Positions 17,261 through 40,892 of a stretch of DNA of 64,000 nt are shown here, piece by piece. Position numbers and translations under genes: made by a program. The notes below the pieces were generated by a model. That model worked only from the letters and a program-made list of their open reading frames with translations. It searched no databases and was not told the DNA's origin. The DNA is from a virus. The stretch covers positions 1 through 64,000 of IMG/VR virus record IMGVR_UViG_3300047409_000248; one strand, 5' to 3'. Position 1 is the stretch's first letter. Every line of letters starts with the position of its first letter.

Positions 17261-17981
17261 CTGCTGGTACCATCCCCTTGATTGCTTCAACTGACTTTGC
17301 GAATTTCTCAGCATGGCCTCTGTTCAAGAGCCAATCATCTGCTGCTTCAGCATAGGCATTGTTTGTGGTCAAATTAAGTTCTCGCATTTGTTCGTGCGGG
17401 ACATAAATCGGCGCTGGTTCGATGATAACCGGCTCCGTCATCATCCAGACGTGGTTCATGAACCTGTTAGCCCGTGCCATCAATTCGTCAGCGTAGTCTT
17501 TGTCGTAATTGACGTACTCGACATATGGCTCAGCAGCGCCAGCAATGATGGAGATCGCGCACTTGTTGCTCTTGGTGCATTCCATCTGCCATGTCATCTG
17601 CGGGAAGTAGCGCTGAATAATTGTTTCAGTCTTTTCCCATCCTCCCACATGTTTAGTTTCCACTGGGCATAACAAAACCGGATCGAACCCGTCCAAGGTA
17701 GCGGCAGCCCAGTCATGGTCAGGATGTATAACCACCTCGCCACGGCGAGTAAGAGATACCCCGTGCTTTTTCTCGTACCAATCAAGGTTCAATCCCTCCG
17801 TAACTTCGCCCAATCTCACGGGCCAGTTGTCACTGAAGTCTGGCTCGACATAGCCGGGATCGCCAACCATCTCGCGCCAGAGGTTCATGATGCGCTCCTT
17901 GTCACCAGAGACAAGAGAGCCGATAGAGGAAGCCGTTAGCTTCCCCTGCCTAGCCGCTTTCTGTTCAGGAGTGAGTGCCAC
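17181..17981 (-). CDS. YqaJ/lambda-type exonuclease
   Basis: R..KLTAS...G...E...ATLDG...VETK...Q..WQM motifs. Confidence 0.88.
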   Translation of the reverse strand: MALTPEQKAARQGKLTASSIGSLVSGDKERIMNLWREMVGDPGYVEPDFSDNWPVRLGEVTEGLNLDWYEKKHGVSLTRRGEVVIHPDHDWAAATLDGFDPVLLCPVETKHVGGWEKTETIIQRYFPQMTWQMECTKSNKCAISIIAGAAEPYVEYVNYDKDYADELMARANRFMNHVWMMTEPVIIEPAPIYVPHEQMRELNLTTNNAYAEAADDWLLNRGHAEKFAKSVEAIKGMVPADVRRIYGRGLQAKRAKNGSIRITPLD

Positions 17982-24854: not shown

Positions 24855-25084
24855 TGAAATATTATACAGGACCGATCGAAGAAGTTCGCCCCGGAGATAT
24901 ATTAACCGCTGAGCGCCAGCTTGAATATCGTGAATATATGGCCAAGAAACATAATATGAAAAATATTAAACTGTGGGGACCTAACGAGACCTACAAGGAT
25001 AGCGGCGCTAGACCTTTCGCCGTTAATATCTCTCCTGCTAAGCCTCTTCCTAAACAACCAGAAGAACCTAACCCGTTTGAATGA
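24854..25084 (+). CDS. Hypothetical protein ending PNPFE
   Basis: TAATG coupling. Confidence 0.55.
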   Translation: MKYYTGPIEEVRPGDILTAERQLEYREYMAKKHNMKNIKLWGPNETYKDSGARPFAVNISPAKPLPKQPEEPNPFE

Positions 25085-25340
25085 ATTCCATGGCGCTGGT
25101 GATTTCTTCTTCCGAGAAATCGCTAGGAGTTTCAGCCCGGCCATACCAAGGCCTGTCAATTGTCCAATCTGGAGCTTGATACATCACTGTCCAGCCATTA
25201 CCTAAATCCTCGCAATGCCGCATACTGCCTTCTGGCAGTATGGTATCCAAAGCGTACAATCTCTTTCCATCCTTTGAGACTTTGTGTGCATATCTCTGGT
25301 TCATGGTAGAAATTCGATTGATGATCCATTCTTCAACCAT
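25068..25340 (-). CDS. Small protein with acidic C-terminal tag
   Basis: Ends DFSEEEITSAMEFIQTG. Confidence 0.65.
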   Translation of the reverse strand: MVEEWIINRISTMNQRYAHKVSKDGKRLYALDTILPEGSMRHCEDLGNGWTVMYQAPDWTIDRPWYGRAETPSDFSEEEITSAMEFIQTG

Positions 25341-25809
25341 TGATTATCTCCATGGCGCGTTCAATACCTTCTTCGGTAAAGCCATCATCAGTGATTACTA
25401 CACCCCATGGAAATACATCATGCGCCGTTAATGCCTTCTCTGAGTTCTCAAATTCAAACATTGTTGGGGTTTCTAATCTAGTTGCAAACTGATATGGATG
25501 ATGTCTGTTATTATGACCCGATATCTGTACCTGTGTGAGAACAATCATTCTCCCGCGCGGAGTCATGACTTCCTTATGATCCCAATATTGGGTATTGCGA
25601 GGAATTTTCTCCCAATCCTCCGGGATATCCCAGATACGATTGGGGTCATTAATATCGCCATAGATGAACACTAGAACCCAGTGTTTTCGCCCATCCGGTC
25701 CCATCACCACATAGCTGCGCTCGATTACTGCGTGGTTTATCCTTTCCATGTTAGAAACAAATGCAGTTTCTTCTGGCGTGAGATGTATTGGATGTAGGAT
25801 TGTGCTCAT
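25333..25809 (-). CDS. Protein with acidic C-terminal tag
   Basis: Ends GFTEEGIERAMEIING. Confidence 0.65.
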   Translation of the reverse strand: MSTILHPIHLTPEETAFVSNMERINHAVIERSYVVMGPDGRKHWVLVFIYGDINDPNRIWDIPEDWEKIPRNTQYWDHKEVMTPRGRMIVLTQVQISGHNNRHHPYQFATRLETPTMFEFENSEKALTAHDVFPWGVVITDDGFTEEGIERAMEIING

Positions 25810-25873
25810 AACGGCCCCTGTAGTATCCTGCTGCCTAGATAAACCCAGATTGTGTCACTATCAAGGATGATCC

Positions 25874-26377
25874 ATGGGAGTGCTTCGTAACATAGACGAT
25901 GAACGGTTCTGCCAACTGGTAGTCTCAGGCCGCGACCCCGCAGATGCCTATACCGACACTGGAGGGCTGTCCAAGAACCCTAGCTACGCCGCCGATCGCA
26001 AGATGCGAAAGCTGGTCATCCGGAAGCGGCTGGAGGAATTACTCGACGTAGGGGCTCGCAAGGCCATGCTGAGCCGGTCCCAGATACTCCAGAGGATGGT
26101 GGAAGATTGGGATTTGTCTCGAAAGCTAGGTCAAATGGCAGCCGCAGCAACAAATGCAAAATTAATAGGGATGGAGACTCATAAAATGTTCGTTGAACGC
26201 AAGGAGATAGGAGGTGCTGGGGATTTTGATCAAAAAACCGCCACAGAGTTGTTAGAGTTTATCAAACATGAGATTTCAGAGCTTGGCCTTGGCGCTGAAG
26301 AGATCAAACAACTTGGTATAAATATTGAACCCAATGTCACCATCTTGCCTCCATTGAAGAAGACTGGTACGGAATGA
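25874..26377 (+). CDS. terS: Terminase small subunit
   Basis: ERFCQLVVSG....DAY...G.....AADR...IRKRLEEL N-terminal HTH; helical hairpin; KLIG...KMFVER tail. Confidence 0.75.
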   Translation: MGVLRNIDDERFCQLVVSGRDPADAYTDTGGLSKNPSYAADRKMRKLVIRKRLEELLDVGARKAMLSRSQILQRMVEDWDLSRKLGQMAAAATNAKLIGMETHKMFVERKEIGGAGDFDQKTATELLEFIKHEISELGLGAEEIKQLGINIEPNVTILPPLKKTGTE

Positions 26378-26916
26378 AAAAATGCTCATGTTGCCAAATA
26401 CTTAAACAAGAAGATGAATTTTGGAGAGTTCGTAAAGGCCAACCAAAACTACAGAATAAGTGCAAGGCCTGTGGCACAGCCATGACGCGAGAATGGCGCC
26501 GTAAAAATCCAGAACGCAGCGCCGAACTTAGCATGTGGGCCAAGAAAAACCCAGATAAAGTTCGATCCAAGCTTCTCCTGAAGCTTTACGGCCTAACTCC
26601 CGCTGATTGGGATCGAATGTTGGCTGACCAAGATGGCGGCTGCGCCATTTGCGGCGATAATGAGCCAGCCAGAGGGTTCCACGTAGATCATTGTCATAAG
26701 ACTGGGCGCGTCCGTGGCTTGCTCTGCACCAACTGCAATCATGGTATTGGGAACTTTAGTGAGGACCCCAAGACGATCTTGGAAGCGGCCCGCTATGTCA
26801 TGAGGGACCAGCTTATCAAGCTAGATGCGCCGGTTCCAATGGATGATAACCAAGCCGCAGAATTCCTGCGAGATATAGAAGAGGGAAGAGCCATTCCGGT
26901 TGTGAAGAGGAACTAG
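26374..26916 (+). CDS. Endonuclease VII-type HNH
   Basis: YGLT..W..M...Q.G.CAIC...HVDHCHKTGRVRGLLCTNCN.GIG. Confidence 0.9.
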   Translation: MKKCSCCQILKQEDEFWRVRKGQPKLQNKCKACGTAMTREWRRKNPERSAELSMWAKKNPDKVRSKLLLKLYGLTPADWDRMLADQDGGCAICGDNEPARGFHVDHCHKTGRVRGLLCTNCNHGIGNFSEDPKTILEAARYVMRDQLIKLDAPVPMDDNQAAEFLRDIEEGRAIPVVKRN

Positions 26917-27188
26917 CTTTCTATAAATTCTATTGCCTTGGTGATATCTTCCTCGTTGAATTCTTCCTGAGATAATTCAGCAATTAAATCCTCAGGAAAT
27001 GTACCATTCCATCTATTCCATTCAGGAGACGCATTATCGGGGTATCGATGCGTGGAATACCATTTATTTATTCCTTCTATGGTTACTAAGAACCAACCAC
27101 GTTTGGTTTTGTACCAAGTCTGTTCTTGGTGGTTCCACGAAGATAAATCCTCTTCTCCCGTCAAATCCCATACGCCTTCATAGTTCAT
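26913..27188 (-). CDS. Small protein with acidic C-terminal tag
   Basis: Ends EFNEEDITKAIEFIES. Confidence 0.65.
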   Translation of the reverse strand: MNYEGVWDLTGEEDLSSWNHQEQTWYKTKRGWFLVTIEGINKWYSTHRYPDNASPEWNRWNGTFPEDLIAELSQEEFNEEDITKAIEFIES

Positions 27189-27553
27189 GATCTTTCCTCC
27201 TCTATTTCATCCATGATGATCTGAGCCAACTCGATATCTTCCTCATCGAATTCTGGCGTCATGAAAGATGACGGCGCAATGATGTGCGGCGCTATGTAAC
27301 TATCCCAGAACGTTGGGGGTATTCCCTCCACTTTTGGTTCTCCAACAGCACCACCATCATAGAGTTCAGTGGCCATGTATTCGTTAATAGCATTTGGGAC
27401 ATTATGCCTAAAGATGAGACCTTTTTTAGTTAGGTGTATGGAAATATACTCAGATGCGCAGCAAAATATTCTTGCATATTCTTCCACGCTTATATCACTC
27501 AGCAAATTCCATACCCTCTTCTCATCATCGAATATTGGATGATAGATGCTCAT
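27185..27553 (-). CDS. Small protein with acidic C-terminal tag
   Basis: AGAGGGAAA SD; ends EFDEEDIELAQIIMDEIEEERS. Confidence 0.7.
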   Translation of the reverse strand: MSIYHPIFDDEKRVWNLLSDISVEEYARIFCCASEYISIHLTKKGLIFRHNVPNAINEYMATELYDGGAVGEPKVEGIPPTFWDSYIAPHIIAPSSFMTPEFDEEDIELAQIIMDEIEEERS

Positions 27554-27577
27554 TGTGTTTCCCTCTTGTTGTCCTAT

Positions 27578-28066
27578 ATGGCCCTTACGATGCCTACAGG
27601 AATCAGAACAGCACCTCCCATTTATGGGAGGAAGATATGCGCCAAGTGTGGCGAAGAAAAGCCTATCGAGGATTTCTATAGAGAAAGAAATCCTTGCCGG
27701 GCTTGCCGCTATAAAGCCTCCAATGCATGGAGATTGAATAATCTAGAAAAAGTAGCGGCTCAAACGCGGGCATGGCACAAGCGTAATCCGGAACGTAGCA
27801 GCGATATGTATCGTCGCCGAAAATATAAAAATTTAGAGTGGGGTGATTTCGACCGGATGCTCAAGGAGCAAGATAGCAAGTGTGCCATTTGCGGTATAAC
27901 CGACCCAATGGGGCGTGGAGGTTTCCACATAGATCATTGCCATAAAACAGAAAAGATACGTGCGATACTTTGTCATAACTGCAACTTGGGAATAGGTAAT
28001 CTCCAGCACGACCCGCGTATTTTGCAGGCCGCGCTGGAGTATTTGTTGAAGCATAGCGACGAATGA
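27578..28066 (+). CDS. Endonuclease VII-type HNH (start uncertain)
   Basis: CAICG...HIDHCHKTEKIRAILCHNCNLGIG. Confidence 0.88.
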   Translation: MALTMPTGIRTAPPIYGRKICAKCGEEKPIEDFYRERNPCRACRYKASNAWRLNNLEKVAAQTRAWHKRNPERSSDMYRRRKYKNLEWGDFDRMLKEQDSKCAICGITDPMGRGGFHIDHCHKTEKIRAILCHNCNLGIGNLQHDPRILQAALEYLLKHSDE

Positions 28067-28068
28067 TT

Positions 28069-29280
28069 TTACTTGTAACTTACTGTCCTGCCATAGGGAG
28101 CTTTGGCGCCAGAGTTGGCCCAGTCTACCCAAACTACGGGAAACTCAGGCTGTGGACCAAAACTGGAGGTCATCATGTCCGTGAGGAAGATGCAGCCGAT
28201 GACATCGGACATCTCACCAACGGTCTTCATAGCGGTATCGAAGTTAGTCCCACCACCACCACCAGCATTCCAGCCCTTCAGGTCTTCTGAGGACTTGGCT
28301 TCCAGTGTGTTCTGGATGCGGGTATCCACAGAGATAAGCGTGACATGGTTGATCAGGTTCTGATCCAGAAGGCTTGCAGCCTCCTCGCACATTTCTTGGA
28401 TCATCTGCTGGCTGACTGAGCCAGAGACATCCAAGCACATGACCAGCTTGAACACCTTGTCATTTCCGTTCCCGGGAAAATATTCATCATTCCCAAGGCG
28501 GCGCCGGTTGGGCCGTGTCCAAACGCGAGTGGTGTTGGACTTGGCATCGCGAGACATATCCCGGATCAGGTCTTTCCAATCGATTTTCTCTTTCGGGAAA
28601 AGGTCTTGGATCAGACGCTGAAGATTACCGGGCATGGTACCGGGCGGGGATTTCTCGATAGCTCCCGCGACGGAATTCTTCCATTGGCGCTCGCCCTGTT
28701 CCTGTTCTTGCTCTGATGTCTCGTCAGAGAACATGGAGCCGGGCTTTTCTTGTTCTCCCTCTTGGCCCTCGCCTTCGCCTTCCCCGTCGCCATCTCCATC
28801 CTCAGGCTGGCCTTGACCCTGACCTTTGCCCTTCTGTTTCTGCTTCTGCTTTTCTTGTTTTTCTTCCTGCTGTTGCAGGAGTTCATAAACAGCCTCAGGT
28901 GATAGTTTGCTGAACTTATCATCCCTCAAAGCATCTTCAGGGAGCTTGAAATAGTCTTCCACGACCTTATTGGCCGGGAAAGAACAGGACTGGTTCCAGC
29001 GCTCCTCCTGACGATAGCGACGGCGGGAAACGTGCAACATCGCGCAATGCAGCACCGTCTTGAGCAGGATACCTTCCAGAAACTTGTCGGCTTCGCCATC
29101 TTCCACGAAATCAGGATTGTAAAAGATATCGATGCCGTTGGTCCAGACGGTTTGATGTTTCTTGCTCTCAATGATGTTTGCACCAAACAGGATTGATGCA
29201 AAGAACGGATTGCGCTTAGCCACGCGTTCCCGCGCTATAAGCATTCGTCGCATTGCAGTTGGTTTCAGAATGTTGAACAT
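28069..29280 (-). CDS. DUF2201-type metallopeptidase-like domain plus VWA domain
   Basis: TNG..IFYNPDF; VWA motifs DVSGS, GGGGTNF, FLTD; start ATG 29280 after AGAGGGAAA. Confidence 0.85.
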   Translation of the reverse strand: MFNILKPTAMRRMLIARERVAKRNPFFASILFGANIIESKKHQTVWTNGIDIFYNPDFVEDGEADKFLEGILLKTVLHCAMLHVSRRRYRQEERWNQSCSFPANKVVEDYFKLPEDALRDDKFSKLSPEAVYELLQQQEEKQEKQKQKQKGKGQGQGQPEDGDGDGEGEGEGQEGEQEKPGSMFSDETSEQEQEQGERQWKNSVAGAIEKSPPGTMPGNLQRLIQDLFPKEKIDWKDLIRDMSRDAKSNTTRVWTRPNRRRLGNDEYFPGNGNDKVFKLVMCLDVSGSVSQQMIQEMCEEAASLLDQNLINHVTLISVDTRIQNTLEAKSSEDLKGWNAGGGGGTNFDTAMKTVGEMSDVIGCIFLTDMMTSSFGPQPEFPVVWVDWANSGAKAPYGRTVSYK

Positions 29281-29348
29281 TGGTTTCCCTCTTTGAGCGA
29301 GATTGCTCAATACTGGAGTGGATTTCACCACTCCAGAGTTTAGCAATC

Positions 29349-30386
29349 TTATTTGCCGCTGCCTTCCAGCAACAACTCCTTGAGTTGCGGGATATTCGCA
29401 AGAGACTTATCCCGGCTCATGGCGTCATGAACGCACATGGAAGCGACATCCGGCAACAGTCTTGCCAGATATTTGGCGAACTGCGCCGCGTTCTTGGCCG
29501 TCATGTTGCGAGCGATGGTGCCGCCCATCAGATACTGAAAGTGAGCATCTGCGGGAAGCTTGGCCTTGACCGGATCAGCTAAGATATCCGCGATCTTCGG
29601 CAGTCCTGCTGCCAAGCGATCAAGGAAACTCTCGAACTGACGGCTAAAACCCTCGCCCAAGATAGCCAGCGCCGCGTTGCCCAGAACCGTTTTCAGGGTT
29701 TTCTGGTCCAGTCCCAGCGCATCACTATCCTTAAGAACCTTATTGAAGTTCTCAAGACTGCGCGGCGTTGGAAATGCAGCATGATTGACATCCACCTTAT
29801 GGACCAACTCAGGACGAAGCTGGAGAAACGCGATCAGGCGCTTGTCCCAGCCCCATTCCTTGGTCTTTTCGATGAAGCCCGGCTCATCTACTTCCACAAG
29901 GATATGCGCCATGCGATTTTCAAGAGGCTTGAGCATCTTGTTATCGCCACCACCATCCTCGCGGGTATTGGAGCCCAGAATGATCCGGTTCTGCTTGGGA
30001 AGCGGATAGCCGCCGCAAGACCGATCCAGAACCAACTGGTAAGTCATCTGCTGAAGCTGGACGCTGGCATGACCGAATTCGTCATAGAACATGACGTGCA
30101 TATTGTCGTCTTCTTCCGGGACGAACGCGGGCCGCGTCCAGTATGTGGCCATCTTCTCGCGGTCAATCAGCGGCATGCCCGTGCCATCCACAATATCCTT
30201 TGTGGAAAGCCTAGTGTCATGCAAACGAGACTGGGGACCAAAATCACTCCTGACCTTGGTCATGATCTCGGTATTGATGACCGCAGACTTGCCGACGCCC
30301 GTTGGTCCCTTGATCATTACCGGAACGTTGGCGTGGATCAGGGGATACGCGACTTCGGCAAGCTTGGTAATTTTGCACTTTAACAT
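29349..30386 (-). CDS. MoxR-like AAA+ ATPase
   Basis: GPTGVGKS, FYDE, PLENRMAH, FPTPRS. Confidence 0.88.
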   Translation of the reverse strand: MLKCKITKLAEVAYPLIHANVPVMIKGPTGVGKSAVINTEIMTKVRSDFGPQSRLHDTRLSTKDIVDGTGMPLIDREKMATYWTRPAFVPEEDDNMHVMFYDEFGHASVQLQQMTYQLVLDRSCGGYPLPKQNRIILGSNTREDGGGDNKMLKPLENRMAHILVEVDEPGFIEKTKEWGWDKRLIAFLQLRPELVHKVDVNHAAFPTPRSLENFNKVLKDSDALGLDQKTLKTVLGNAALAILGEGFSRQFESFLDRLAAGLPKIADILADPVKAKLPADAHFQYLMGGTIARNMTAKNAAQFAKYLARLLPDVASMCVHDAMSRDKSLANIPQLKELLLEGSGK

Positions 30387-30798
30387 CAAGGTTTTCCCTC
30401 TTGTAGAGCAGGATTGCTCAATAATGGGCTGGGATTAGCCAGCCCATAGTTTAGCAAACTGGTATCTTGAGACTTTTAGAGAAGCCATCGAGCTTTACTA
30501 TTAGCTCATTGGCTTCTTTATGATAGCCAGCGCAGAAAGACCACCAATTGATCTCTGCGATGGCTTCCGCAATTACTCGGCGAGTAATCTCTATATCGTC
30601 TTGTTGCGGATCGCCTTGACCATAAGCCATTTAGTGGCCCTCCTCATTTGGAGATTTGTGTAAACGCGTGACTGAAGCAATCAACGCGATTGCCATGCCA
30701 AGCGCATACAGGATGAACAAGATTTCCATATTCCCTCTATCTCGCACTTTCTACAAAGCACGTTTATTGGGCGATTTTATGGCGCCCAATAGACTTAC

Positions 30799-31719
30799 TC
30801 AGAGATCGTATTCTGCTGCTTCTGCAACCATCTCAGACACTTCAAGATCAAGAGTGTCCAATTCCACGACTTTGGCTAGGATATCTTTGCCGCGAATAAT
30901 AGCGTCTTTACGGGAATAGGAACTATCCCGCAATTCACTGGCGGTAAGATGTCCCAATCTTGCAATCGACCGCGCTAGCAGTTTGATGTCTTCACTCTCA
31001 GTAATATTCATATCCCTGAGAAGTTCTGATATCTCCCTGCAATTGTTCACAAGACTATCGCGGATCAGCTTGCCATCGGCTGTTGATTTATAGCTCTCCA
31101 ACCTATCGACAAATATCCCCACGATTTCCTTGGCGCGGTTTACCATGGTCATGGCGGCCTCTTTCAGCCTCGTTTCAATCTCCAGCGACATCTGGCTGGT
31201 CGCTTGCGCTACAGCCTCTTTCGCTATGTCAGCCACGAAATGGCCGGTTGAAGGCATTGGCCAATACGTGAGCTTGAACCGGAACATATCCTTTGCCTTG
31301 TTGGGACTGGGATATTCAGTGCGATCAAACAAATCGCCTAGTTCTCGCTCGCTATCGGCTATCAGTGCAGGATAAACTTGCAAATACTCATCCCATGCCA
31401 AGCGTAATTCGTGCTCAGCATCTGAGATTTTCCTTGTGAATTCATCATGCACCGCGACCGGAAGCAATCTGGTTTTGTCATCGCCCCATGGTAGAGAGTA
31501 TTTGTAAACAATTTCGCGTACCCTCTGCGATGCAGCAACAACGGCTTTGACCTTGGCATGCCTACGGTCGATAAGGAACTTGCTGGCTTTTGCGCGCCGG
31601 TCATGAAGATTGAACTTTCTTTCCACATATCCGGTTGCTGTCTTGTCGCGCCGTTCACCCAGCAATCCGCCATTTATAATGGTCACAGAAACAAGCATTG
31701 CAGATTTGGCTAGGTCCAT
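30799..31719 (-). CDS. DUF3150-like protein (usual partner of phage AAA/VWA pairs)
   Basis: SLPW...RLLP...LGDLFDRTEYPS...RDSLVNN. Confidence 0.7.
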   Translation of the reverse strand: MDLAKSAMLVSVTIINGGLLGERRDKTATGYVERKFNLHDRRAKASKFLIDRRHAKVKAVVAASQRVREIVYKYSLPWGDDKTRLLPVAVHDEFTRKISDAEHELRLAWDEYLQVYPALIADSERELGDLFDRTEYPSPNKAKDMFRFKLTYWPMPSTGHFVADIAKEAVAQATSQMSLEIETRLKEAAMTMVNRAKEIVGIFVDRLESYKSTADGKLIRDSLVNNCREISELLRDMNITESEDIKLLARSIARLGHLTASELRDSSYSRKDAIIRGKDILAKVVELDTLDLEVSEMVAEAAEYDL

Positions 31720-31989
31720 TTGAATGTTTCCCTCTTATAGAACGCTCGTTTGGCGCTCATCACTGAGGCTCTAAAGCCTCAGGACATGAACGTCATTTCT
31801 CAACCATGAGAAAGGTGGCTTTCCCATCCGATATTTGGATTATCCCGAGTTTATCGGGATGATCGAATACTTCAGCGCTATCTGGGTTGATCCAGGTTCG
31901 CTCAAATGCCGTCCAGCTAGCAGCTAGCAATCCTCCGATGAAAGCTAATTCGGCCTCTTTTGTCTCGAAAGACAGTTGATAGGCTATCA

Positions 31990-32388
31990 TCAGTGCAGTG
32001 TCTTGCCGTCTTTGCGCGGAGATTTCTGCACACCACAATCGCAAATATGATCGTGGCATTGGTCCGCTACCATTCCGAAATTATCCTCGCTGATATGGCC
32101 CATTTGCGCGGCCATGATCATGAAAGGTCTGATTGCTTCAATGGGCAATCCGATGGCTTTGCGAATTCGCTTTGCCTTGAAGATGGCATACTTGCCAACC
32201 TTAGTCGGAGCTTCGTCCATCTGCTTGGTTTCAGCGAAAAACGGCATGATAAGAAGATACCGCCAGAAGGTTTCCGCGTTGCTTTCCCATTGCGGGAAAA
32301 ACTCAGCCAGCTTGCGCTTGCTGAAAGTCACACCATTGACCCTGAAGGCCGCCGATGTCTCGTTACATTCGATGCACATGACAGGCAT
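31990..32388 (-). CDS. Hypothetical protein
   Basis: Preceded by a structured element and SD. Confidence 0.65.
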   Translation of the reverse strand: MPVMCIECNETSAAFRVNGVTFSKRKLAEFFPQWESNAETFWRYLLIMPFFAETKQMDEAPTKVGKYAIFKAKRIRKAIGLPIEAIRPFMIMAAQMGHISEDNFGMVADQCHDHICDCGVQKSPRKDGKTLH

Positions 32389-32664
32389 GGTTAAATCTCC
32401 CTCTTGTAGAGCATAATGCTCTATGCTGCGCTACGTGATTTGTACATAGCGCAGTGAAGAACATTAGACATATTCGTGGAATTGCGTTCCGTATTGCTCC
32501 GCGACCTGTTCTTTGGTCAGCGGTGGATTGCGCTTTTCGTGGATCATCTGCTTATAATTGAGCGCATAGTAAGTCACCCAATTAGCTGCATGTGGATATC
32601 CTACCATTTGGAACGGCGTCCTTGGCCGCTTCAGAAGGCGCGATATGGGCGTAGGTTGGCCATT

Positions 32665-32940
32665 TTAATGGCCCTCCTCAAACGTATCCACAAGCTCAAA
32701 ACCGGCCTCATCAAGCTCCATCGTCATATATGTTATGGGCTGGTTGATGGTTTCGGCATAAGCTTTGACGGTTTGATCTGGCGCGCAGAATATTTCATCT
32801 GCCGCTGTTTCCAGCAGTTGTTGATTTTTAATGAACCAACCAGCGCCAGCGATTTCAGCCTCATCGCGGTTTTTGGCTTCCACCTCAATCTCAATTCCGA
32901 TTGCTGCGGAGGCTTCAAAATGCACTTTAAATTTTGGCAT
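32665..32940 (-). CDS. Acidic hypothetical protein
   Basis: Preceded by a structured element and SD. Confidence 0.7.
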   Translation of the reverse strand: MPKFKVHFEASAAIGIEIEVEAKNRDEAEIAGAGWFIKNQQLLETAADEIFCAPDQTVKAYAETINQPITYMTMELDEAGFELVDTFEEGH

Positions 32941-33178
32941 GGTTTTCCCTCTTATTGAGCGTAATGCTCATCACTGAAGCCCGTAAGCTTCAGGACATGA
33001 GCACTAGATAAAACAGGCTATGATAAAGCCTATACTGCCAAAGCCTATTGTAAGGGTCAGGCAGTCAAAGATTGCAGTGCGGAATTCCGCTTCTTCCTGC
33101 GTCATGATATGAGCCATATCATTCCTGCGGCCCAGAGCGCCATATAGACGCCCCAGAACGCAACCAGATATTTGTCAA

Positions 33179-33373
33179 TCATGAGCTAACCCATGATGCG
33201 CCGCAGGCCAGATAGAATTGCTCCGCGTGAAAGTTGGCATTGGTATCGCCAAGCCGGTCAGCGAAAGCCTTTGCGACTTTCTGCTTTTCAGCTTGTTCGA
33301 TGTCCAAGCCATCAATCGTTGCGGCAATCAACTCGAAATGCCGTCGCTGCATTGATGTTTGATGTCTTGCCAT
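33179..33373 (-). CDS. Conserved small phage protein
   Basis: RRHFELIA...FADRL..TNANF...F..AC; start after the element SD. Confidence 0.7.
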   Translation of the reverse strand: MARHQTSMQRRHFELIAATIDGLDIEQAEKQKVAKAFADRLGDTNANFHAEQFYLACGASWVSS

Positions 33374-33440
33374 GGTGTTTTCCCTCTTGAAGCTTAAGCG
33401 CTTCGTGCTGCACCTATTGCTAGGTGCAGTGTCGAAAAGC

Positions 33441-33689
33441 TTATTCTGCGGCTTGCAATTCACGCGTGCTGCGCTTGATGGCAGCCCGAACCGAATTCAA
33501 CGCTCCGAAAACCTTGGATTTAATTTCCTTGTTTCCGATTGCGTTGGCATGCGGCCAAGCGAGTTCAAGCGCAGTCTTTGCAGCGCCGAATTCACCGTTG
33601 CGGATAAGACGCTCTGCGGTAGAAAGATGCAGGGTCAACGTGACTTTGTGACTGTCGCGCTCTGCATCGTTCAATTGCCTTTTTGCCAT
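33441..33689 (-). CDS. Hypothetical protein
   Basis: Flanked by two structured elements. Confidence 0.7.
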   Translation of the reverse strand: MAKRQLNDAERDSHKVTLTLHLSTAERLIRNGEFGAAKTALELAWPHANAIGNKEIKSKVFGALNSVRAAIKRSTRELQAAE

Positions 33690-33750
33690 GGTATTTCCCT
33701 CTTAGAGCGGAATGCTCTATGACGCTCTCCGTAGAGAGCGCTTAGAACAC

Positions 33751-33930
33751 TCAATCAGCGTCGTCAGTCTTGAGCGGGGAAGCGTAGTAATATTGTTCGT
33801 TCTTTGCGTACAGGAACGCTCCGAGCTTGACGACTTTAACGCCGCCGCGCTTAAGCGCCACTTCCATCGTATCGCCTTCAGCCATACGAATAGGAGATTT
33901 AACCGCCCAAACCTTTGCAAATTGTGCCAT
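33751..33930 (-). CDS. Hypothetical 59-aa protein (not in ORF track)
   Basis: MAQFAKVWAVKS...DDAD*; flanked by two structured elements. Confidence 0.65.
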   Translation of the reverse strand: MAQFAKVWAVKSPIRMAEGDTMEVALKRGGVKVVKLGAFLYAKNEQYYYASPLKTDDAD

Positions 33931-34002
33931 GTGTTTTCCCTCTCTTGAAGCAAAATGCTTCGTGCTGGAGAGTGGTTAAGCTCTCCAGTGTCGAAACACT
34001 CG

Positions 34003-34512
34003 CTAAAGACAAGCGCCAGCTTTGATCCGGAAGCGAGCGGAACTAAATCCGCCAGATACAGGGTCAGTGATTACCAGTTGACCGTCCTGGCGAAGCATCC
34101 AATTTCCGCTGTGCAAATCGCCGCTAAGATTGTTACGGCGAAGTTCAGCGACATATTCAACGATATCCGTTGCTTCGCATTGGCCGCGATTAAAGATATT
34201 ATTGAAGACACGCGCTTGTGCTGTTCTAGCACCATGTTCGTATTTGAGTTCACTCATGGTGCAGATAAGGCGTTCCATGATAGCCACGTAAAACTCATCA
34301 TGGAATTTCAGGCTGTAGACCTTGGGAGCGAATTTCCCAGCGTGGCCGTTATTCGTGGCCCATTGGATATAGGAAGGCCATTCGTCCAGTTCCCCAACCT
34401 TAATCACCTTATCGAAGGCGTTAGGAATGGAGTAAACCTTGGAATAAAGGCCGCTCCCTATCTGGAGACATCCAAGCTCTGCCAGTCTTGCCTGATATTC
34501 GCGTTGGTTCAT
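34003..34512 (-). CDS. Ser/Thr protein kinase, T7 gp0.7-like minimal kinase
   Basis: IGSGLYSKVY glycine loop, VIK, APKVY, MERL, DLHSGNWM catalytic loop, ITDP. Confidence 0.82.
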   Translation of the reverse strand: MNQREYQARLAELGCLQIGSGLYSKVYSIPNAFDKVIKVGELDEWPSYIQWATNNGHAGKFAPKVYSLKFHDEFYVAIMERLICTMSELKYEHGARTAQARVFNNIFNRGQCEATDIVEYVAELRRNNLSGDLHSGNWMLRQDGQLVITDPVSGGFSSARFRIKAGACL

Positions 34513-34600
34513 GGTGGTTTCCCTCTCTATGGCAGTTGAAAATTGCCTAACCGGCTAGACTAAACGCCTAGCCGAAATAATGTGCTGAGGTATTCTAATA

Positions 34601-34816
34601 CTAAGCTCCGATACGCCATATGTCAGAAGTGACATTATGGTGGTCGATTGCGCCGCATGATTTAAGCCCGGCTTTCACCGGGATACGAAAATCGTTTGGC
34701 CTTGTTTTCCATGTCTGAGTTTTGCCATTGCGGCGGCATTTCCAATAGTTCCCGTTGCCCATACGGGCATAAAGCGAACCATTGTCCAATGCCGTTTCAA
34801 GTGCTTCCTTTGTCAT
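34601..34816 (-). CDS. Conserved small phage protein
   Basis: RRNGKTQTWKTRPNDFRIPVKAGL motif. Confidence 0.75.
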   Translation of the reverse strand: MTKEALETALDNGSLYARMGNGNYWKCRRNGKTQTWKTRPNDFRIPVKAGLKSCGAIDHHNVTSDIWRIGA

Positions 34817-35506
34817 GGTATGTAATCCCTCTTTCGGCTAAATTGCCTAATAGCTAAAGAGGCTTAGCAGGGTAGGAAGTCGGAAAATGAATTCCGGCTA
34901 ACCACACTGCCAAGCCTCTAAAGCCAAAAAGCCAGCTTTCTAGGGCTAGCTGGTAGTAGAGAGAAAAGGGTATGGAACAGCTTGTTACGGCTGTTCCCCA
35001 TGTTGCCAAGTGCAATGCTTGGTATCATCCCCCCATGCCAACCTGCTCAATGAGACTTACGGCGCGATCCGGGGATAGGTAGCTTATGACGACCAGACGA
35101 TGCTGGCGCTACTGTCCCGCCTTGCTAGGCAATGGAAAGAGGAGTTTTAGGCGTTCTAGCCCGATTTTTATCCCCGCCATGGTTACTCTCGCTCCGCTAC
35201 ACGGGAACGCTATGCCCCTATCGCGTAAGCTACCCTAGCCATAGTCCAGAAAGGGAAATTGCTCGCAAGTATTGCCTAATGAGGGCTGGATCGCTGGAGG
35301 TTGTCTGTCCCTCCTTGGACGGCATATGGCGCTTGCTACGCCTGCCGGGACTAGGGCCTAATCGACCTAGTGGCTGAATGCGCTCTATCAAATCTCCATC
35401 TCGTTAACCTGAGATAAAGATACGCCTTTGTAGCAATCCAGTTAGTGGGTTAGACGCATGGCTGGTATGCGCTGAGATCATAACGCTTGCTAAGTGTAGC
35501 TAATCA

Positions 35507-35845
35507 ATGCATTATTGCATGGCAGGTATGCACATGACGCAGCAATGCTCTAATTGCCAATCAATCCACGATGCATCTGGGCGCTACTGTAAGCCTTGCC
35601 GAGCGGCTTATATGCGAAATTATCGCCGCATCAATCCTGCCAAGCCATCGCACGAGCAACGCTCTAAAGCCATCTGTAGGGCTACCGCTAACGTCTACAA
35701 ACGTAGAGGCAAGATAACCCTAGAACCATGTGAGCATTGCCTAGCTGATAAAGTCGAAATGCATCATGACGACTATACCAAGCCCCTAGTCGTCAGGTTC
35801 CTATGTGTCCCATGCCATAGGGCGCTGCATTATCCCGGACCATGA
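35507..35845 (+). CDS. Zn-finger/HNH-like protein, paralogous to 15586-16053
   Basis: CEHC...EMHHDDYTKPLVVRFLCVPCH. Confidence 0.7.
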   Translation: MHYCMAGMHMTQQCSNCQSIHDASGRYCKPCRAAYMRNYRRINPAKPSHEQRSKAICRATANVYKRRGKITLEPCEHCLADKVEMHHDDYTKPLVVRFLCVPCHRALHYPGP

Positions 35846-35849
35846 ATAA

Positions 35850-36250
35850 CGGGCGAAAGGGTAAGGCAATCGACCTCCCTCGCGTTGTTCCACGTGTAAC
35901 CCACATGCACATGCGAGTCATTCGCATATAGCCACATGCGAACCACTAGCAACAAGCCTCATGCCAATGAGATATGCACATAGCGCATAGACCCATGCGT
36001 GCTAAGCATATGATATTCCACAAGTTCCCACCCCCTCCCCCATGCATAGCAGCTAGCTCATCCAGATAAGAACAGTTCGCATCAAGCCTCATGCCAAGCA
36101 CCTATGCACTACAGCATTGCACCTATGCGCCCATAGGAGGGCTAGTCGATAATGATAGTCATTCGCAAAAGGGTACCTTGGGGTCGGCCAACCCGCCTAT
36201 AGGATCGCCCCGCCCAGTCGGAGCCTTCTCGGCCATTCGACCTTTATGTA
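35850..36250. repeat. Non-coding ATGC/GCAT-rich region with short direct repeats
   Basis: CAAGCCTCATGCCAA at 35953 and 36083; AGTCATTCGCA at 35916 and 36157. Confidence 0.55.
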
Positions 36251-36337
36251 AAATTTTATAGAAGACCCTTCTTGTATCGTAAGCGGTGTAAGCATATCCT
36301 GTAAGGATTGTAAGTACTGCATGTAAGGGAGCGTAAT

Positions 36338-36700
36338 ATGGATACTGAGACCATTAGAATGGCTATAGCTAGGGTGAGGCGTGGCTCTACTAACCGTGAT
36401 GTTTTGGACGTTTGTGATTTTGCGGAAAAATGTTTGGGCTCGAAACCCAAGTTGTCCGAGCTTGAGCGTAAGGAGAAGGAGCGGGAGTATATGAAGGGGT
36501 ATCGAGCTAGGCTGAGAATGAAGAGGCTGGCCAAGGAGGGGGATCGTATTGAGCAACGATCCTTGGTCAGGGCGGTGAAGGATGGGAAGCTGGAGACGAT
36601 AGACCGGATACGGCGGATGGTGGCGGACCAGCAGGCGCTGGCATCGGTTCCCCGGTTCCCCAAGGATGAGGACGATCCCAATCCATTTGAGGAGGGTTAG
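36338..36700 (+). CDS. Hypothetical protein ending PNPFEEG
   Basis: AAGGGAG SD; first rightward gene after the non-coding region. Confidence 0.65.
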   Translation: MDTETIRMAIARVRRGSTNRDVLDVCDFAEKCLGSKPKLSELERKEKEREYMKGYRARLRMKRLAKEGDRIEQRSLVRAVKDGKLETIDRIRRMVADQQALASVPRFPKDEDDPNPFEEG

Positions 36701-36891
36701 ATGGCGACGGTAAAGAAGGGGATACTGAGCAGGGCTCAGGAATGGTGGAAGCATTTGAGGGGGACCAAGCGTCCTTTCTGGAAGAGGGAGAGGAAGGCGG
36801 CGAAGCGGGATATTTCCAAAAGACTGTCTGAATAAGAACACAATCTGTACCTAGAGTGTGATCGGGTTAGGCCACATTAGAGAGGAGGTGT

Positions 36892-37182
36892 GTGATGAAG
36901 ATCACAACGACGTTTAATGATCTGGTTCAGGCCAATGCCGAGTGTGCGGGTATTATTGTGAAGCAGATGGAAGAGATTGAGAGTCTGAGGGATGCTCTTC
37001 GGATGATCGTGGAGTGGAGTAAGGCATACCCGTTGAGTGTATTCCCGGAACCTGACTTGATAAAGGCCAGCGCTCTACTAGAGGCTGGCGGGCAGACGTT
37101 GGATGCCATTAGTGCCCATGCGATGCGGCATGTGGTGGAGGGTGTGGGGGAGATCGCCAAGGGAGCCCTGAAGGAGGTTTGA
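36892..37182 (+). CDS. Conserved phage hypothetical protein
   Basis: GAGGAGG SD; W..AYPL.VFPEPD...TLDAISA..MRH. Confidence 0.7.
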   Translation: MMKITTTFNDLVQANAECAGIIVKQMEEIESLRDALRMIVEWSKAYPLSVFPEPDLIKASALLEAGGQTLDAISAHAMRHVVEGVGEIAKGALKEV

Positions 37183-37358
37183 GATGATCCATGATGTGGA
37201 TGACCAGATGGAGATGGAGCGGGCTTTGCGGGAGTGGCAGGCTGCGCGGAGGGCGATCTTTGTTTTTCCGATGACGACGCCTGCCAGCCCTGAACAACTC
37301 AGGCTATGGGAGCGGCTGGGGAATGCGGAAGATGCTCTGATGAAGATTGAGGTCTGAG

Positions 37359-37649
37359 ATGGCAAACCAGCACATCCGATCAGAAACCTTCCTGCGCTGG
37401 GGCGATATACTGGATCGGGCTTATCGGTTGGATAACCACGATGAGGTCTTGGCCGAATTTAACCACCGCATTAGTGCCATTGATCTCCAAGGAGGTCATC
37501 CACGGGATGCCAGTGACGAGCGATACGCATTGTGTACCCGTGTGATGCAGGAGGTGATGGGAGAGAAGGAAGTTGAGGTAACGCTGGATGCCCAAGCAGA
37601 CGAGTATGAGGAGTGCATGCGTGCACAGGAACTGATGGAAACTCTCTGA
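37359..37649 (+). CDS. Small protein with acidic C-terminal tag
   Basis: Ends QADEYEECMRAQELMETL. Confidence 0.65.
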   Translation: MANQHIRSETFLRWGDILDRAYRLDNHDEVLAEFNHRISAIDLQGGHPRDASDERYALCTRVMQEVMGEKEVEVTLDAQADEYEECMRAQELMETL

Positions 37650-37999
37650 TGGCAAAGATGGCAAATCTGAATACATTTACAGGCATCATTGAGCATATCA
37701 GGCCATACATTCGGCATGAAGCGGAAGCCACTGGCGTCTTTATGAATACCCAGATTAATTATTGCGATGACACGTTATTTCTGAGTGCTGTCTACGAGAA
37801 AAATGAGAACCACAGCATCCTCCTTACCAGAGAGGAGGTAGAGCAACGGCGCTGGATGCCTCTGGTCGAGGAAAGAGTGCGCGCTGCCATCCAAGCGGTC
37901 AAGCCTGACATCTCTCTTTCCTGCCAAGCCGACGAATACGAGGAGACCATGAAAGCAGAAGAGATCATAGAAGAGTTAACGCCGGTCGGGGCCAAATAA
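37649..37999 (+). CDS. Small protein with acidic C-terminal tag
   Basis: TGATG coupling; QADEYEETMKAEEIIEEL. Confidence 0.65.
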   Translation: MAKMANLNTFTGIIEHIRPYIRHEAEATGVFMNTQINYCDDTLFLSAVYEKNENHSILLTREEVEQRRWMPLVEERVRAAIQAVKPDISLSCQADEYEETMKAEEIIEELTPVGAK

Positions 38000-38263
38000 T
38001 GAGCCGCATATCCAAAAAGAAAGAACGGTCTTGGCGACTTCGCAAGAAGCGTTGGAAACTCCAGCCCAAGGATTACGACAGGCGAGACGATACGATGGCT
38101 ATCGTGGCTGCCGATCTGGCTGATTGGCAATGGAAGGCTCTCCCTGAAGAGAGCAAGGAGATTTACCGCGCCAGAGCGGAAAAGGCCTTTTCTGTCTTCT
38201 CCTCAAAATAGACTTAATTGAGTGTGATCTGATATTCACAAACATAAAGAGGGAAAACACTAC

Positions 38264-38815
38264 ATGGCTAACGAACCCAAGATCGGTCAGTTGCTGACCA
38301 GCCATCTCGCTGACCGAGATGCAATCCATATCGCGGTGGCGCCCGTGATCGCAGCGGAAGAACTGCGTCCGGGACAGCACGTTGGCTTTGTCAAAGACGG
38401 AGACACTACTGTTGTTGGTCCGAACGCCAACTCTCTTATTGGCATCATCGATCCATATCTGGATGAGATCGTTCATCCCGGTGCAGCCTGCTGGCTGTTC
38501 CTGTATCCGCAGACGATTACCTCGCTGCGCCATAACTGGACGCATCCAGCCTTTGGCGAAAAGAAGCCCGTCATTTCAAGTTCTGAAAGGTGGCTTAGAG
38601 ACTTCGCCGATGAAGTTGATGCTGACTATGATGAAATGATGCATGTTGCGTCTACTCATTGTACCGGCAATAAAGACCGTTGGCCTGACTACTTAATTGA
38701 TGGCGGCAAATGGGAAGGCACGAGCACACCAGAAGAATTCTGGACGCATTTCACTGCCGTAACCGGCAAGACGCCAACCGATGGCCCGACTGGCATATTT
38801 TCCTGTGGCTGCTAA
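38264..38815 (+). CDS. Conserved phage hypothetical protein
   Basis: RDAIHIAVAPV...GIIDPYL...WLFLYPQTITSLRHNWTHPAF...FSCGC; AGAGGGAAA SD. Confidence 0.75.
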   Translation: MANEPKIGQLLTSHLADRDAIHIAVAPVIAAEELRPGQHVGFVKDGDTTVVGPNANSLIGIIDPYLDEIVHPGAACWLFLYPQTITSLRHNWTHPAFGEKKPVISSSERWLRDFADEVDADYDEMMHVASTHCTGNKDRWPDYLIDGGKWEGTSTPEEFWTHFTAVTGKTPTDGPTGIFSCGC

Positions 38816-39074
38816 GCCATTGGCACCAAAGGATCATCTTCTATTAATTATAGCAAACCGTTCCAGACCAAGGAAGGTTGGGATGAATTCAATCGGCGCG
38901 TGGCATTGCTGCATAACTTTGCCACCCCGGGCCAAGCCTCCGGTATTATGCGTGAAGTTCAGATATGGGAAAACAACTTCACGGGCTCTTACCTGCAAGA
39001 ACAGGAATACAACGAGATCATGAAGGCCAATGAGCTTTACATGAAACTGTGCGAGAAAGATTGAGGGAAAGACA

Positions 39075-39338
39075 ATGGACGAGTTCGACAGACTAGGTTT
39101 CAACCAGTTGCCTCCATCCGGCAAGACAGCCCTTGATCAGATGAAGGCATTGATCGATGACAGCGCAGGGCCAGCCGATGTTGGCGTAGCTGTTTCCTTG
39201 GGGCTGGGGTATCTTCTGGCTGTCTCCAATGAGCCGGAAGATATCCTCAAGGTAACGATCATGACCGCTATGAAGGTCAAGCAGATCATGGAGGCCGGGA
39301 TAGAAAAGGATCGCTCCGATGCCCAATGGTCCAACTGA
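39075..39338 (+). CDS. Hypothetical protein
   Basis: GAGGGAAA SD. Confidence 0.6.
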   Translation: MDEFDRLGFNQLPPSGKTALDQMKALIDDSAGPADVGVAVSLGLGYLLAVSNEPEDILKVTIMTAMKVKQIMEAGIEKDRSDAQWSN

Positions 39339-39585
39339 CCGTCATGAACAATACGACAGCACTCAGGATTTACTGAAACGTATTAAGGCGCAGAGTTCTT
39401 ACCAACAAAAGCAGGATCGCATCCTGCAAGATATCGCTCATGAGAAGCGTCTCAGAGTTTTAGAGGCCGAAGCTATAGCTGTAGTGGACAGGAAGCTATC
39501 CGAAGTCGAGAGGGAATACTTGGAGACCATCAAGGCCCAAGAGATCATGGATCAGATCGATGAAAACCGCAAAAGAGATGCTTGA
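39319..39585 (+). CDS. Small protein with acidic C-terminal tag
   Basis: EREYLETIKAQEIMDQI. Confidence 0.6.
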   Translation: MPNGPTDRHEQYDSTQDLLKRIKAQSSYQQKQDRILQDIAHEKRLRVLEAEAIAVVDRKLSEVEREYLETIKAQEIMDQIDENRKRDA

Positions 39586-39892
39586 TAGCGTTGCCGGGTT
39601 TGCCCTGAAGATGGAGTGGATTATAGGAACCTCTCTGGTGATTTTCTGGTTCACCATCGCGGTTGTCGGGTTCGCTTTTGTATTTGAATATTTCCATAGC
39701 AGGTCCCTTCAGCGCCATCGGGCGATACTGGAGGATGAGTACGAGCGAGCGCTTATCTATCATAAAGCCCGGGAGAAAGAAAAAGAACTGGAGCAACGCC
39801 AAGCCATTCTGGAAGAGACTGACAGGGAATACATGGACGCAATACGAGCGCAGGAAATTATAGAAGAGTTGGAAAAGGGAAACATCAAATGA
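39560..39892 (+). CDS. TM protein with acidic C-terminal tag
   Basis: TM segment; DREYMDAIRAQEIIEEL. Confidence 0.6.
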   Translation: MKTAKEMLDSVAGFALKMEWIIGTSLVIFWFTIAVVGFAFVFEYFHSRSLQRHRAILEDEYERALIYHKAREKEKELEQRQAILEETDREYMDAIRAQEIIEELEKGNIK

Positions 39893-40401
39893 GCTATGGC
39901 GAGTTCTTTCTCTATATCACTGCTGGCGCCTTCTGGGGCATCGTCGGTTTTACAAATGGCCGCAACCTGTATCGGCGCTGGAAAGCCCCGCGCCAAATGT
40001 CCAAGCTGGATGATATGATCTCCAGACTTAAGCAGGAAGCCCAAGAGGCTATGGAGGCGATGAAGATAGAGATCAAGCAGACCCCTTCCACTCCAGAGAC
40101 CCACGTCCTGTCATGGCGCTACAAGGGCGAGCTACAGCAGGTCAAGATCGTTATCGACCCGGCTCTGGATACCGCCATTGAAGGCAGCAGGGAAGAGTTT
40201 GAGCAATTGGTTAAAGAGGGTGATGCCGGGAAGCTTCAGGACCTTCTGGATGGTCTGGCCAGCAACGATGCCAAGGATAGGATTTCCGCTCAGGACATCT
40301 TCGTGTTTTCCAGAAAGGCTGTTGAGCAAATGAAGATGGCCGATATGTCCCCGGACGATATCGTCACCAAAATACTGAAAGCCTCTGGGAGGATGGATTA
40401 A
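39889..40401 (+). CDS. Membrane-anchored hypothetical protein
   Basis: N-terminal TM; ATGA coupling. Confidence 0.6.
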   Translation: MSYGEFFLYITAGAFWGIVGFTNGRNLYRRWKAPRQMSKLDDMISRLKQEAQEAMEAMKIEIKQTPSTPETHVLSWRYKGELQQVKIVIDPALDTAIEGSREEFEQLVKEGDAGKLQDLLDGLASNDAKDRISAQDIFVFSRKAVEQMKMADMSPDDIVTKILKASGRMD

Positions 40402-40892
40402 TGGGCTGGTTTACCTTTGCCGATGAGGCAGTAGCCAAGCTGTTCCAGCAGCATAAGCAGGAATGCATTGACCGAAAACCCAAAACAGATACTCTCCAGC
40501 CAGATCAACCGGCTGGAGATACTTCCATGGCAACAGTTACGATGACGACCAATCTTACTCCCTACGCCGCAAATACCGGAGTCGTAGCGCTCCCCAGCAA
40601 TAGCGGTCCTTATTATACTTATACGCCTGCTGGCCAGCTTGGCGCTGGCCAATATGTTGGCGCCGCGAATGCTGTCTACGCCTACGGTAATTCTCCACAA
40701 TACGTGACCGCTGCTTATCCGGCCGGTGGTCTTCATGGCATGGCGTGGCCTATCGCAACTCTTGCCAACAACGGACAATGGTTTGAAGCGGCTCAATTGG
40801 GTGCCCAGCCGATCCAACCAGTAGATCGTTCCGAATTCTCCGAAGAGGAAATCTCTCAGGCAGAAAAACTGATGGAGGAACTGAGTGCCTAG
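40401..40892 (+). CDS. Low-complexity protein with acidic C-terminal tag
   Basis: Y/A/G-rich; ends EFSEEEISQAEKLMEELSA. Confidence 0.6.
   Translation: MGWFTFADEAVAKLFQQHKQECIDRKPKTDTLQPDQPAGDTSMATVTMTTNLTPYAANTGVVALPSNSGPYYTYTPAGQLGAGQYVGAANAVYAYGNSPQYVTAAYPAGGLHGMAWPIATLANNGQWFEAAQLGAQPIQPVDRSEFSEEEISQAEKLMEELSA

Follow-up and report, generated by a model that had tools for sequence, protein, structure and literature searches.

A short acidic C-terminal helix shared by small accessory proteins of an uncultured phage family

Ten small proteins of one virus genome end in a shared peptide

We analysed a stretch of DNA (the window) comprising bases 1–64,000 of a 74,179-bp virus record that is rated 100% complete (IMG/VR record IMGVR_UViG_3300047409_000248; genome label G000), in which ten small proteins carry an acidic C-terminal peptide of one of two types, A or B, hereafter referred to as the tag. 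We derived the genome layout from Pfam and PHROG matches. Structural and packaging genes occupy 50.3–74 kb and 0.1–11.8 kb, replication and recombination genes occupy 12–24 kb, and two non-structural operons run in opposite directions from starts near 35 kb. The leftward operon encodes, in order, a T7 gp0.7-like kinase, a 306-amino-acid (aa) protein, a MoxR ATPase, a protein in which a zincin-like domain is fused to a vWA domain (zincin-vWA) and, directly downstream of the latter and at the end of the operon, four type A proteins. The rightward operon contains five type B genes, a gene for a conserved transmembrane (TM) protein, one type A gene and the gene for a helix-turn-helix (HTH) regulator (Table 1).

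An earlier, sequence-only reading of the window had quoted ten such C-terminal peptides, and we found all of them in place. We searched the whole genome for a type A pattern, [FYW]-x-[ED]-[EDG]-x-[ILMV]-x-x-A-x-x-h-h, and a type B pattern, [FYW]-x3-[MILV]-[KR]-A-x-[EDKN]-h-h. The type A pattern matched six times, with five of the matches being C-terminal and lying 2–8 residues before the stop codon; the type B pattern matched five times, in every case C-terminally and 3–11 residues before the stop codon. By contrast, mononucleotide-shuffled genomes yielded on average 0.07 type A and 0.15 type B matches, with only 0.00–0.02 near a stop codon. Similarly, profile hidden Markov models (HMMs) of the tag gave E-values of 1e-5 to 1e-9 for its members, as compared to 0.4–1.6 for the best reversed or shuffled decoys. 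The tags thus clearly exceeded the controls with both patterns and HMMs. The proposed location at or near the stop also held, since the motif ended 2–11 residues from the stop codon in all ten proteins.

Within the tags, codon positions 1 and 2 were 70–72% identical, whereas position 3 was 35–37% identical, indicating that it is the peptide that is under selection, rather than an element of DNA or RNA. Where tag residues were identical, their codons agreed in less than half of the cases. We also considered a DNA or RNA repeat as the cause of the shared tag; the codon-position analysis rules this out. We conclude that the shared C-terminal tag on ten small proteins is real.

Table 1. Tagged genes and other features of the window, with the position of the tag where there is one.
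Feature	Coordinates	Tag	Strand	Basis or remark
Type A protein, 90 aa	25068–25340	25080–25118	-	Pattern and HMM; orthologue in G001
Type A protein, 158 aa	25333–25809	25342–25380	-	Pattern and HMM; no orthologue detectable
Type A protein, 91 aa, Trp-rich	26913–27188	26922–26960	-	Orthologues in G001 and G002; remote paralogue of 27185
Type A protein, 122 aa	27185–27553	27212–27250	-	Pattern and HMM; remote paralogue of 26913
Type A protein, 163 aa, low-complexity Y/G/A/Q-rich body	40401–40892	40836–40874	+	Pattern and HMM
Type B protein, 100 aa	37347–37649	37605–37637	+	Pattern and HMM
Type B protein	37613–37999 (as listed)	37937–37969	+	Pattern and HMM
Type B protein, 54 aa	38900–39064	39008–39040	+	Orthologues G001_56594 and G002_31129
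Type B protein, 88 aa, coiled-coil-like	39319–39585	39517–39549	+	Pattern and HMM
Type B protein, 110 aa, N-terminal TM helix (KD19 2.30)	39560–39892	39830–39862	+	Pattern and HMM
DUF2201_N (zincin-like, degenerate) fused to DUF2201/vWA	28069–29346		-	Pfam DUF2201 and VWA_2; DUF2201_N E 3e-31
MoxR-class AAA+ ATPase	29349–30389		-	PHROG phrog_1297; Walker A GPTGVGKS and Walker B DE conserved
Conserved 306-aa protein, DUF3150-like	30799–31719		-	Upstream of MoxR; candidate third triad member
T7 gp0.7-like Ser/Thr protein kinase, 169 aa	34003–34512		-	PHROG phrog_15752, E 1e-17; near start of leftward early operon
TerS-like gene	25874–26377		+	Weak match to phrog_51; 24 kb from TerL, antisense among type A genes
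Endonuclease_7/HNH gene pair	26374–26916 and 27434–28066		+	Paralogues, 39% identical; antisense within type A cluster
Conserved 170-aa protein, N-terminal TM helix	39889–40401		+	Between TM-anchored type B gene and last type A gene
Erf-like single-strand annealing protein	16370–17314		-	phrog_2324, E 4e-35

Tags are present throughout one family of uncultured phages

A Megablast search with the region found no match among 50,697 deposited phage records, and the nearest TerL among these cultured or deposited genomes is 46% identical. Five related uncultured virus records (G001, G002, G003, which is a 15-kb fragment, G005 and G006) have TerL proteins that are 69–84% identical, and tags are present in all five of them. 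We counted 14 tagged open reading frames (ORFs) in G001, six in G002, three in G003, 15 in G005 and 12 in G006, in addition to the ten described here (about 60 in total). Across the six genomes, every tag lies within 22 residues of the stop codon. Two of the gene models can be corrected. The type B frame that ends at 39064, which had been treated as unannotated, is a real gene, because it has orthologues in two relatives. The type B gene listed at 37613–37999 probably starts at the ATG at 37649 and encodes 116 aa, the form present in the protein collection. None of the ten tagged proteins reached the curated cut-off in Pfam or PHROG profile searches.

The positions of the tagged genes are conserved. 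In every genome that holds the MoxR and zincin-vWA pair, type A genes lie directly downstream of the pair on the same strand. In all relatives, as here, the low-complexity type A protein is encoded by the last gene ahead of the HTH regulator. Each complete genome encodes one type B protein that is anchored by an N-terminal TM helix.

These observations bear on one of the roles that had been suggested for the tag, that of a capsid-loading or ejection signal. The tag would load diverse anti-defence cargo into the prohead for co-injection, comparable to the signal of T4 internal proteins, a capsid targeting sequence that is removed by the prohead protease, or to the C-terminal cargo-loading peptides of encapsulin systems. 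A capsid interior presents many copies of a binding site, and this fits 10–15 cargo proteins in competition with one another. By contrast, the TM-anchored member of each complete genome could not be packaged, and we found no tags in the structural genes of the six genomes; all tagged genes are in the two divergent non-structural operons, beside the T7 gp0.7-like kinase, MoxR and the regulator. Moreover, the tag is C-terminal, whereas the T4 signal is not. The TM-anchored member and the lack of a tagged gene in the structural module weaken the idea of capsid targeting, which we regard as improbable.

We also measured how far the tag extends beyond these genomes. The type B profile, compared with 5.8 billion proteins, found only members of the family, on contigs of up to 30 kb. 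The type A profile gave 55 matches at E <= 1e-3 among 1.84 billion representative proteins. In 53 of these, the match was at the C-terminus of a protein of 44–195 aa; the other two, in large repeat proteins, are probably spurious. The bodies of the 53 proteins include SH3-like domains, a "PIGP...CGG" family, a low-complexity "FTDAxG" family and others, and some are encoded on contigs of 75,050 bp and 60,920 bp, the latter being G006. Overall, roughly 35 further tagged proteins came from other assemblies. One protein of G006 (P0046, encoded at 38698–39243) is a natural fusion of two SH3-like-plus-tag units, with one tag being internal and the other C-terminal. An alignment of the SH3-like body plus tag found no relative in 185,579 bacterial and archaeal genomes, and hence no prophage or host copy. 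A metagenome scan added a single 1-kb contig, and a search for related loci with the zincin-vWA protein or its alignment returned the same two relatives only. Searches of IMG/VR with strict DNA patterns yielded mostly the known relatives, as well as one unrelated family with an N-terminal type A-like peptide, and two more patterns gave nothing new. We conclude that the tag is specific to, and a general feature of, one family of uncultured 73–77-kb phages, each genome of which attaches it to 6–15 fast-turnover small accessory proteins with differing bodies.

The unrelated family consists of small viral proteins on other IMG/VR contigs (L007:2172-2453, L008 and L010–L013; one contig is 424 kb), which carry the type A-like peptide F-T-E-E-E-I-D-F-A-M-E-M-I at the N-terminus. 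The peptide begins 10 residues past the start, and the family has no Pfam match.

The tag is a predicted capped helix that occurs in two dialects

The tag is a module of 16–18 residues in which an acidic lead-in and an aromatic residue precede an N-cap/capping-box start and a short helix, whose core in both types is A-x-E-[IL]-[IM]-[ED]-[ED]-L. The type A consensus is [ED]-F-[STDN]-E-E-[ED]-I-x-x-A-x-x-[IL]-[IM], and its start presumably forms a hydrophobic staple (F at N', I at N4) together with a capping box (S/T/D/N ... E). The type B consensus is E-Y-[DE]-E-x-M-[KR]-A-x-E-[IL]-[MY]-E-x-L. Among the roughly 60 tagged ORFs, the helix is followed by 0–22 variable residues. The net charge of the tag is between 0 and -7. 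The tag had been described as amphipathic; it is acidic and predicted to be helical, but with hydrophobic moments of 0.18–0.51 it is only moderately amphipathic. The tag was helical in both AlphaFold models. In the better of the two, of an SH3-like member, the tag had a predicted local distance difference test (pLDDT) score of ~95, as compared to 76 overall. The AlphaFold2 model of 26913, made from five sequences, had a pLDDT of 46 and is usable solely for the tag being helical. We considered whether the [ST] of type A might be a phosphosite of the phage kinase, but the choice of S, T, D or N at this position is explained more simply by a helix N-cap.

Types A and B had been listed as two separate tags. 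Both exist; however, they appear to be forms of a single module. A profile-profile comparison (hhalign) of A with B gave a probability of 91% and an E-value of 1e-6, with the alignment anchored on the core A-x-E-[IL]-[IM]-E-E-L. The type A HMM also recovered type B tags with scores above those of decoys, and the two dialects are mixed inside one cluster in both G005 and G006. The SH3-like body family is found with either dialect, and its profile weakly matches two type B proteins, which likewise points to A and B being variants of a single module. These data argue for one module with two dialects.

The bodies of the tagged proteins appear mostly unrelated

The sequence-only reading described the tagged proteins as unrelated outside the tag. 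BLAST comparison of the bodies with the tag removed detected orthologue pairs between genomes and no similarity among the tagged proteins within this genome, and an iterated HMM search with the tag masked placed 48 tagged proteins in 40 groups. None of this genome's tagged proteins had a BLAST orthologue in G005, despite the 15 tagged ORFs there. The tag was more conserved than the body in nine of ten orthologue pairs (41–82% identity for the tag, 21–35% for the body). The architectures found under the same tag are a TM-anchored coiled coil, the low-complexity "FTDAxG" type, SH3-like barrels and Trp-rich domains. By contrast, 26913 and 27185 are full-length remote paralogues, aligned through their orthologues, and the type A clusters of G005 and G006 constitute a paralogue family of SH3-like proteins with the motif K-x-G-D-x-V-x-I; a Foldseek search with one SH3-like member returned weak SH3-like matches only (E 0.03–0.1). 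The description as unrelated therefore holds for most of the bodies, as far as these comparisons can detect, and fails for these two sets. The proposal of a modular design, with a variable body and a common C-terminal label, fared better: the tag is kept in five relatives on mostly non-homologous bodies of different architectures, and is better conserved than they are.

One explanation for the shared helix is that the tagged proteins are diverged paralogue families that arose from a few duplicated ancestors, with the helix being the most constrained piece of the fold, or a self-association helix, and with no common reader. Both sets of paralogues described above are consistent with this. A Trp or other aromatic residue about 20 residues upstream of the tag also recurs in many type A proteins, and the helix is the part of the SH3-like model with the highest pLDDT, which is compatible with packing on the barrel. 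On the other hand, the same tag is found on plainly different architectures, the 48 proteins still fall into 40 groups when HMM searches are iterated with the tag masked, a net charge of -3 to -7 disfavours homomeric helix bundles, and the tag has been retained through complete turnover of the bodies between this genome and G005. We consider it unlikely that paralogy is the whole explanation; a structural or oligomerisation helix in diverged paralogues accounts for part of the data.

Other genes among the tagged genes

Two paralogous Endonuclease_7/HNH genes inside the type A cluster are likely to be mobile homing endonucleases. The pair has no counterpart in G001 or G002, and G005 has one such gene, beside its zincin-vWA gene. 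A TerS-like gene antisense among the type A genes is a conserved arrangement; this odd position is kept in G001, G002, G005 and G006. The conserved TM protein encoded at 39889–40401 has a conserved C-terminus of its own, S-P-D-[DE]-[ILV]-V-x-x-[MI]-L-K-A-[SA]-G-R-M, in all six genomes.

An adjacent MoxR/zincin-vWA triad is the leading candidate for a reader of the tag

The zincin-vWA gene is in the same operon as the type A genes that follow it. We compared the zincin motif of this protein (KTVLH...H, residues about 96–105) with those of its homologues. Five of the tag-bearing genomes encode the protein, and in each of them the HExxH motif has degenerated (KTVLH, HTVLH, HSVLH, EVIMH and ECVMH), with the catalytic Glu being lost in all five and the first His also being lost in three. 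By contrast, two N4-like phages, Axy10 and Pastis, and a Vibrio jumbo phage encode homologues with an intact motif (HELWH, HEVWH and HEILH). Judged from these residues, the zincin motif of the tag-bearing phages is catalytically dead. The MIDAS residues of the vWA domain, D-x-S-x-S...T...D (here D-V-S-G-S, T and D), are invariant among the zincin-vWA homologues. It is plausible that a dead peptidase domain that retains its fold acts as a peptide receptor. The 306-aa protein encoded upstream of MoxR is a possible third member, which would make the set a triad. Its C-terminus is a conserved acidic tail in which an aromatic residue lies 1–4 positions from the end (for example, ...AEAAEYDL, ...AGEYEF or ...ASEYL). 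This tail resembles the first half of the type B tag.

The presence of an AAA+ ATPase and a peptidase-like domain next door is one of the features that would fit a degron or timer, in which the helix marks early accessory proteins for timed removal by a host or phage protease. The C-terminal placement of the tag and its occurrence on many early-operon proteins would fit this explanation too. However, the adjacent zincin motif is predicted to be dead, and the 0–22 variable residues that follow the helix mean that a free C-terminus is not the signal. Acidic helices are, to our knowledge, not typical of the degrons that ClpXP, Lon or FtsH recognise. Timed degradation hence seems a poor prospect.

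We favour a reading in which the tag is a portable docking helix for one common partner, most likely the adjacent triad, and we give this reading a probability of about 0.5. The helix would be a short linear motif that allows a single partner in the cytoplasm to bind dissimilar proteins, whether soluble or anchored in the membrane. If that partner is the triad, the zincin domain, its peptidase motif being dead, would bind the tag rather than cut it, the intact MIDAS could grip an acidic residue of the tag, and the MoxR ATPase would then remodel, release or position the tagged clients. A host hub protein is an alternative partner. The sequence-only reading had already named the neighbouring MoxR/VWA pair as a possible reader, and the idea gains circumstantial support from the conserved operon adjacency, the combination of a dead zincin motif with an intact MIDAS, and a published analogue (see below). 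We therefore consider the DUF3150-like/MoxR/zincin-vWA triad to be the leading candidate, and a candidate only. A complex prediction with zincin-vWA, MoxR, a type A tag segment and Mg gave a score that was not separated from that of a control in which chain 1 was replaced, and hence favours neither binding nor its absence.

Several observations weigh against docking on the triad. Most type B genes are in the other, divergently transcribed operon. We found no A or B tags in a 13-kb stretch around the MoxR/zincin-vWA pair of N4-like phages, indicating that the pair needs no such tags in general. Since all tag-bearing genomes belong to one family, the co-occurrence of the tag with a dead zincin motif amounts to a single evolutionary event. 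Part of the sharing of the tag is due to common descent, since several tagged proteins are paralogous, and the conserved helix could instead serve folding or self-association.

More specifically, and only tentatively, the tag may be the client handle of a viral MoxR machine, in which a peptidase-vWA co-chaperone that has lost catalysis is now the receptor for a family-specific acidic helix. One ATPase would then load, remodel or position a renewable library of 6–15 host-takeover or anti-defence proteins, one of them at the membrane.

One short, strongly selected peptide connects about a tenth of the genes of this phage, and these are the genes that evolve fastest. If a single partner reads the tag, dozens of ORFan proteins across an uncultured phage family would share a pathway, and searches with the tag could uncover accessory or anti-defence genes. 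If the triad is the reader, this would provide the first function for the MoxR/zincin-vWA gene pair, which occurs widely among N4-like and jumbo phages and has so far lacked an explanation, and would constitute a viral counterpart of the bacterial vWA-MoxR peptide systems.

Comparison with known systems

Shared C-terminal docking peptides that converge on one hub are known already, as are variable precursors paired with zincin/vWA-MoxR systems. The literature that we searched contained no description of the motif, of the phage family, of such a number of tagged genes in a genome or of the dead-zincin context.

The closest analogue is a group of bacterial systems in which a zincin-like metallopeptidase and a small, rapidly diverging precursor with a conserved C-terminal peptide, in some cases of an acidic type, are coupled to vWA-MoxR ternary systems (Kaur, Burroughs, Iyer and Aravind, 2020, PMC7159879). 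The vWA domains have been proposed to capture the substrate peptide, which MoxR then releases in remodelled form (PMC7159879). As in those systems, MoxR, vWA and zincin-like domains (phrog_1297; DUF2201 and VWA_2) adjoin small, fast-diverging proteins that conserve only an acid-rich C-terminal peptide. Unlike those systems, the one described here belongs to a phage, whereas the published ones are found in multicellular bacteria such as actinobacteria; zincin and vWA are fused in one protein and the HExxH motif is degenerate, so that an active metallopeptidase is not present; each genome has 6–15 tagged genes in place of a single precursor; the tag is a helix of 16–18 residues, with 0–22 residues trailing it; and we saw no VMAP, AP-ATPase or radical-SAM partner.

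Among phages, a MoxR/metallopeptidase-vWA chaperone pair has been noted in group 2.2 jumbo phages and assigned to virion assembly or structural-protein processing (Iyer et al., 2021, PMC7824862). Jumbo and N4-like phages have homologous DUF2201_N and DUF2201 domains, with ~25% identity, next to a MoxR ATPase; unlike in the phage described here, these homologues keep HExxH, and we found no A or B tags near the N4-like pair. The tagged proteins also resemble T4 internal proteins, which carry a capsid targeting sequence (PMC3012670), in being hypervariable small proteins that have only a short address peptide in common. They differ in that the T4 signal is N-terminal, whereas the tag is C-terminal in about 60 of about 60 cases and is found on membrane-anchored proteins as well.

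Acidic C-terminal tails that dock on a hub include those of T7 gp2.5 and gp4, which bind the polymerase, the tails of bacterial SSB and the clamp-binding tails of T4 proteins. For a MoxR-class ATPase, docking of the NorD C-terminus on the NorQ ring is structurally documented (PMC13036017). Tails of the SSB and T7 type, acidic runs that close with an aromatic or hydrophobic residue, are read at the extreme C-terminus, whereas the tag comprises an internal helix start and a helix, followed by 0–22 variable residues. Nevertheless, if the docking reading is correct, the tagged proteins would be like SSB, T7 and NorD in that unlike proteins reach one partner through one short C-terminal peptide.

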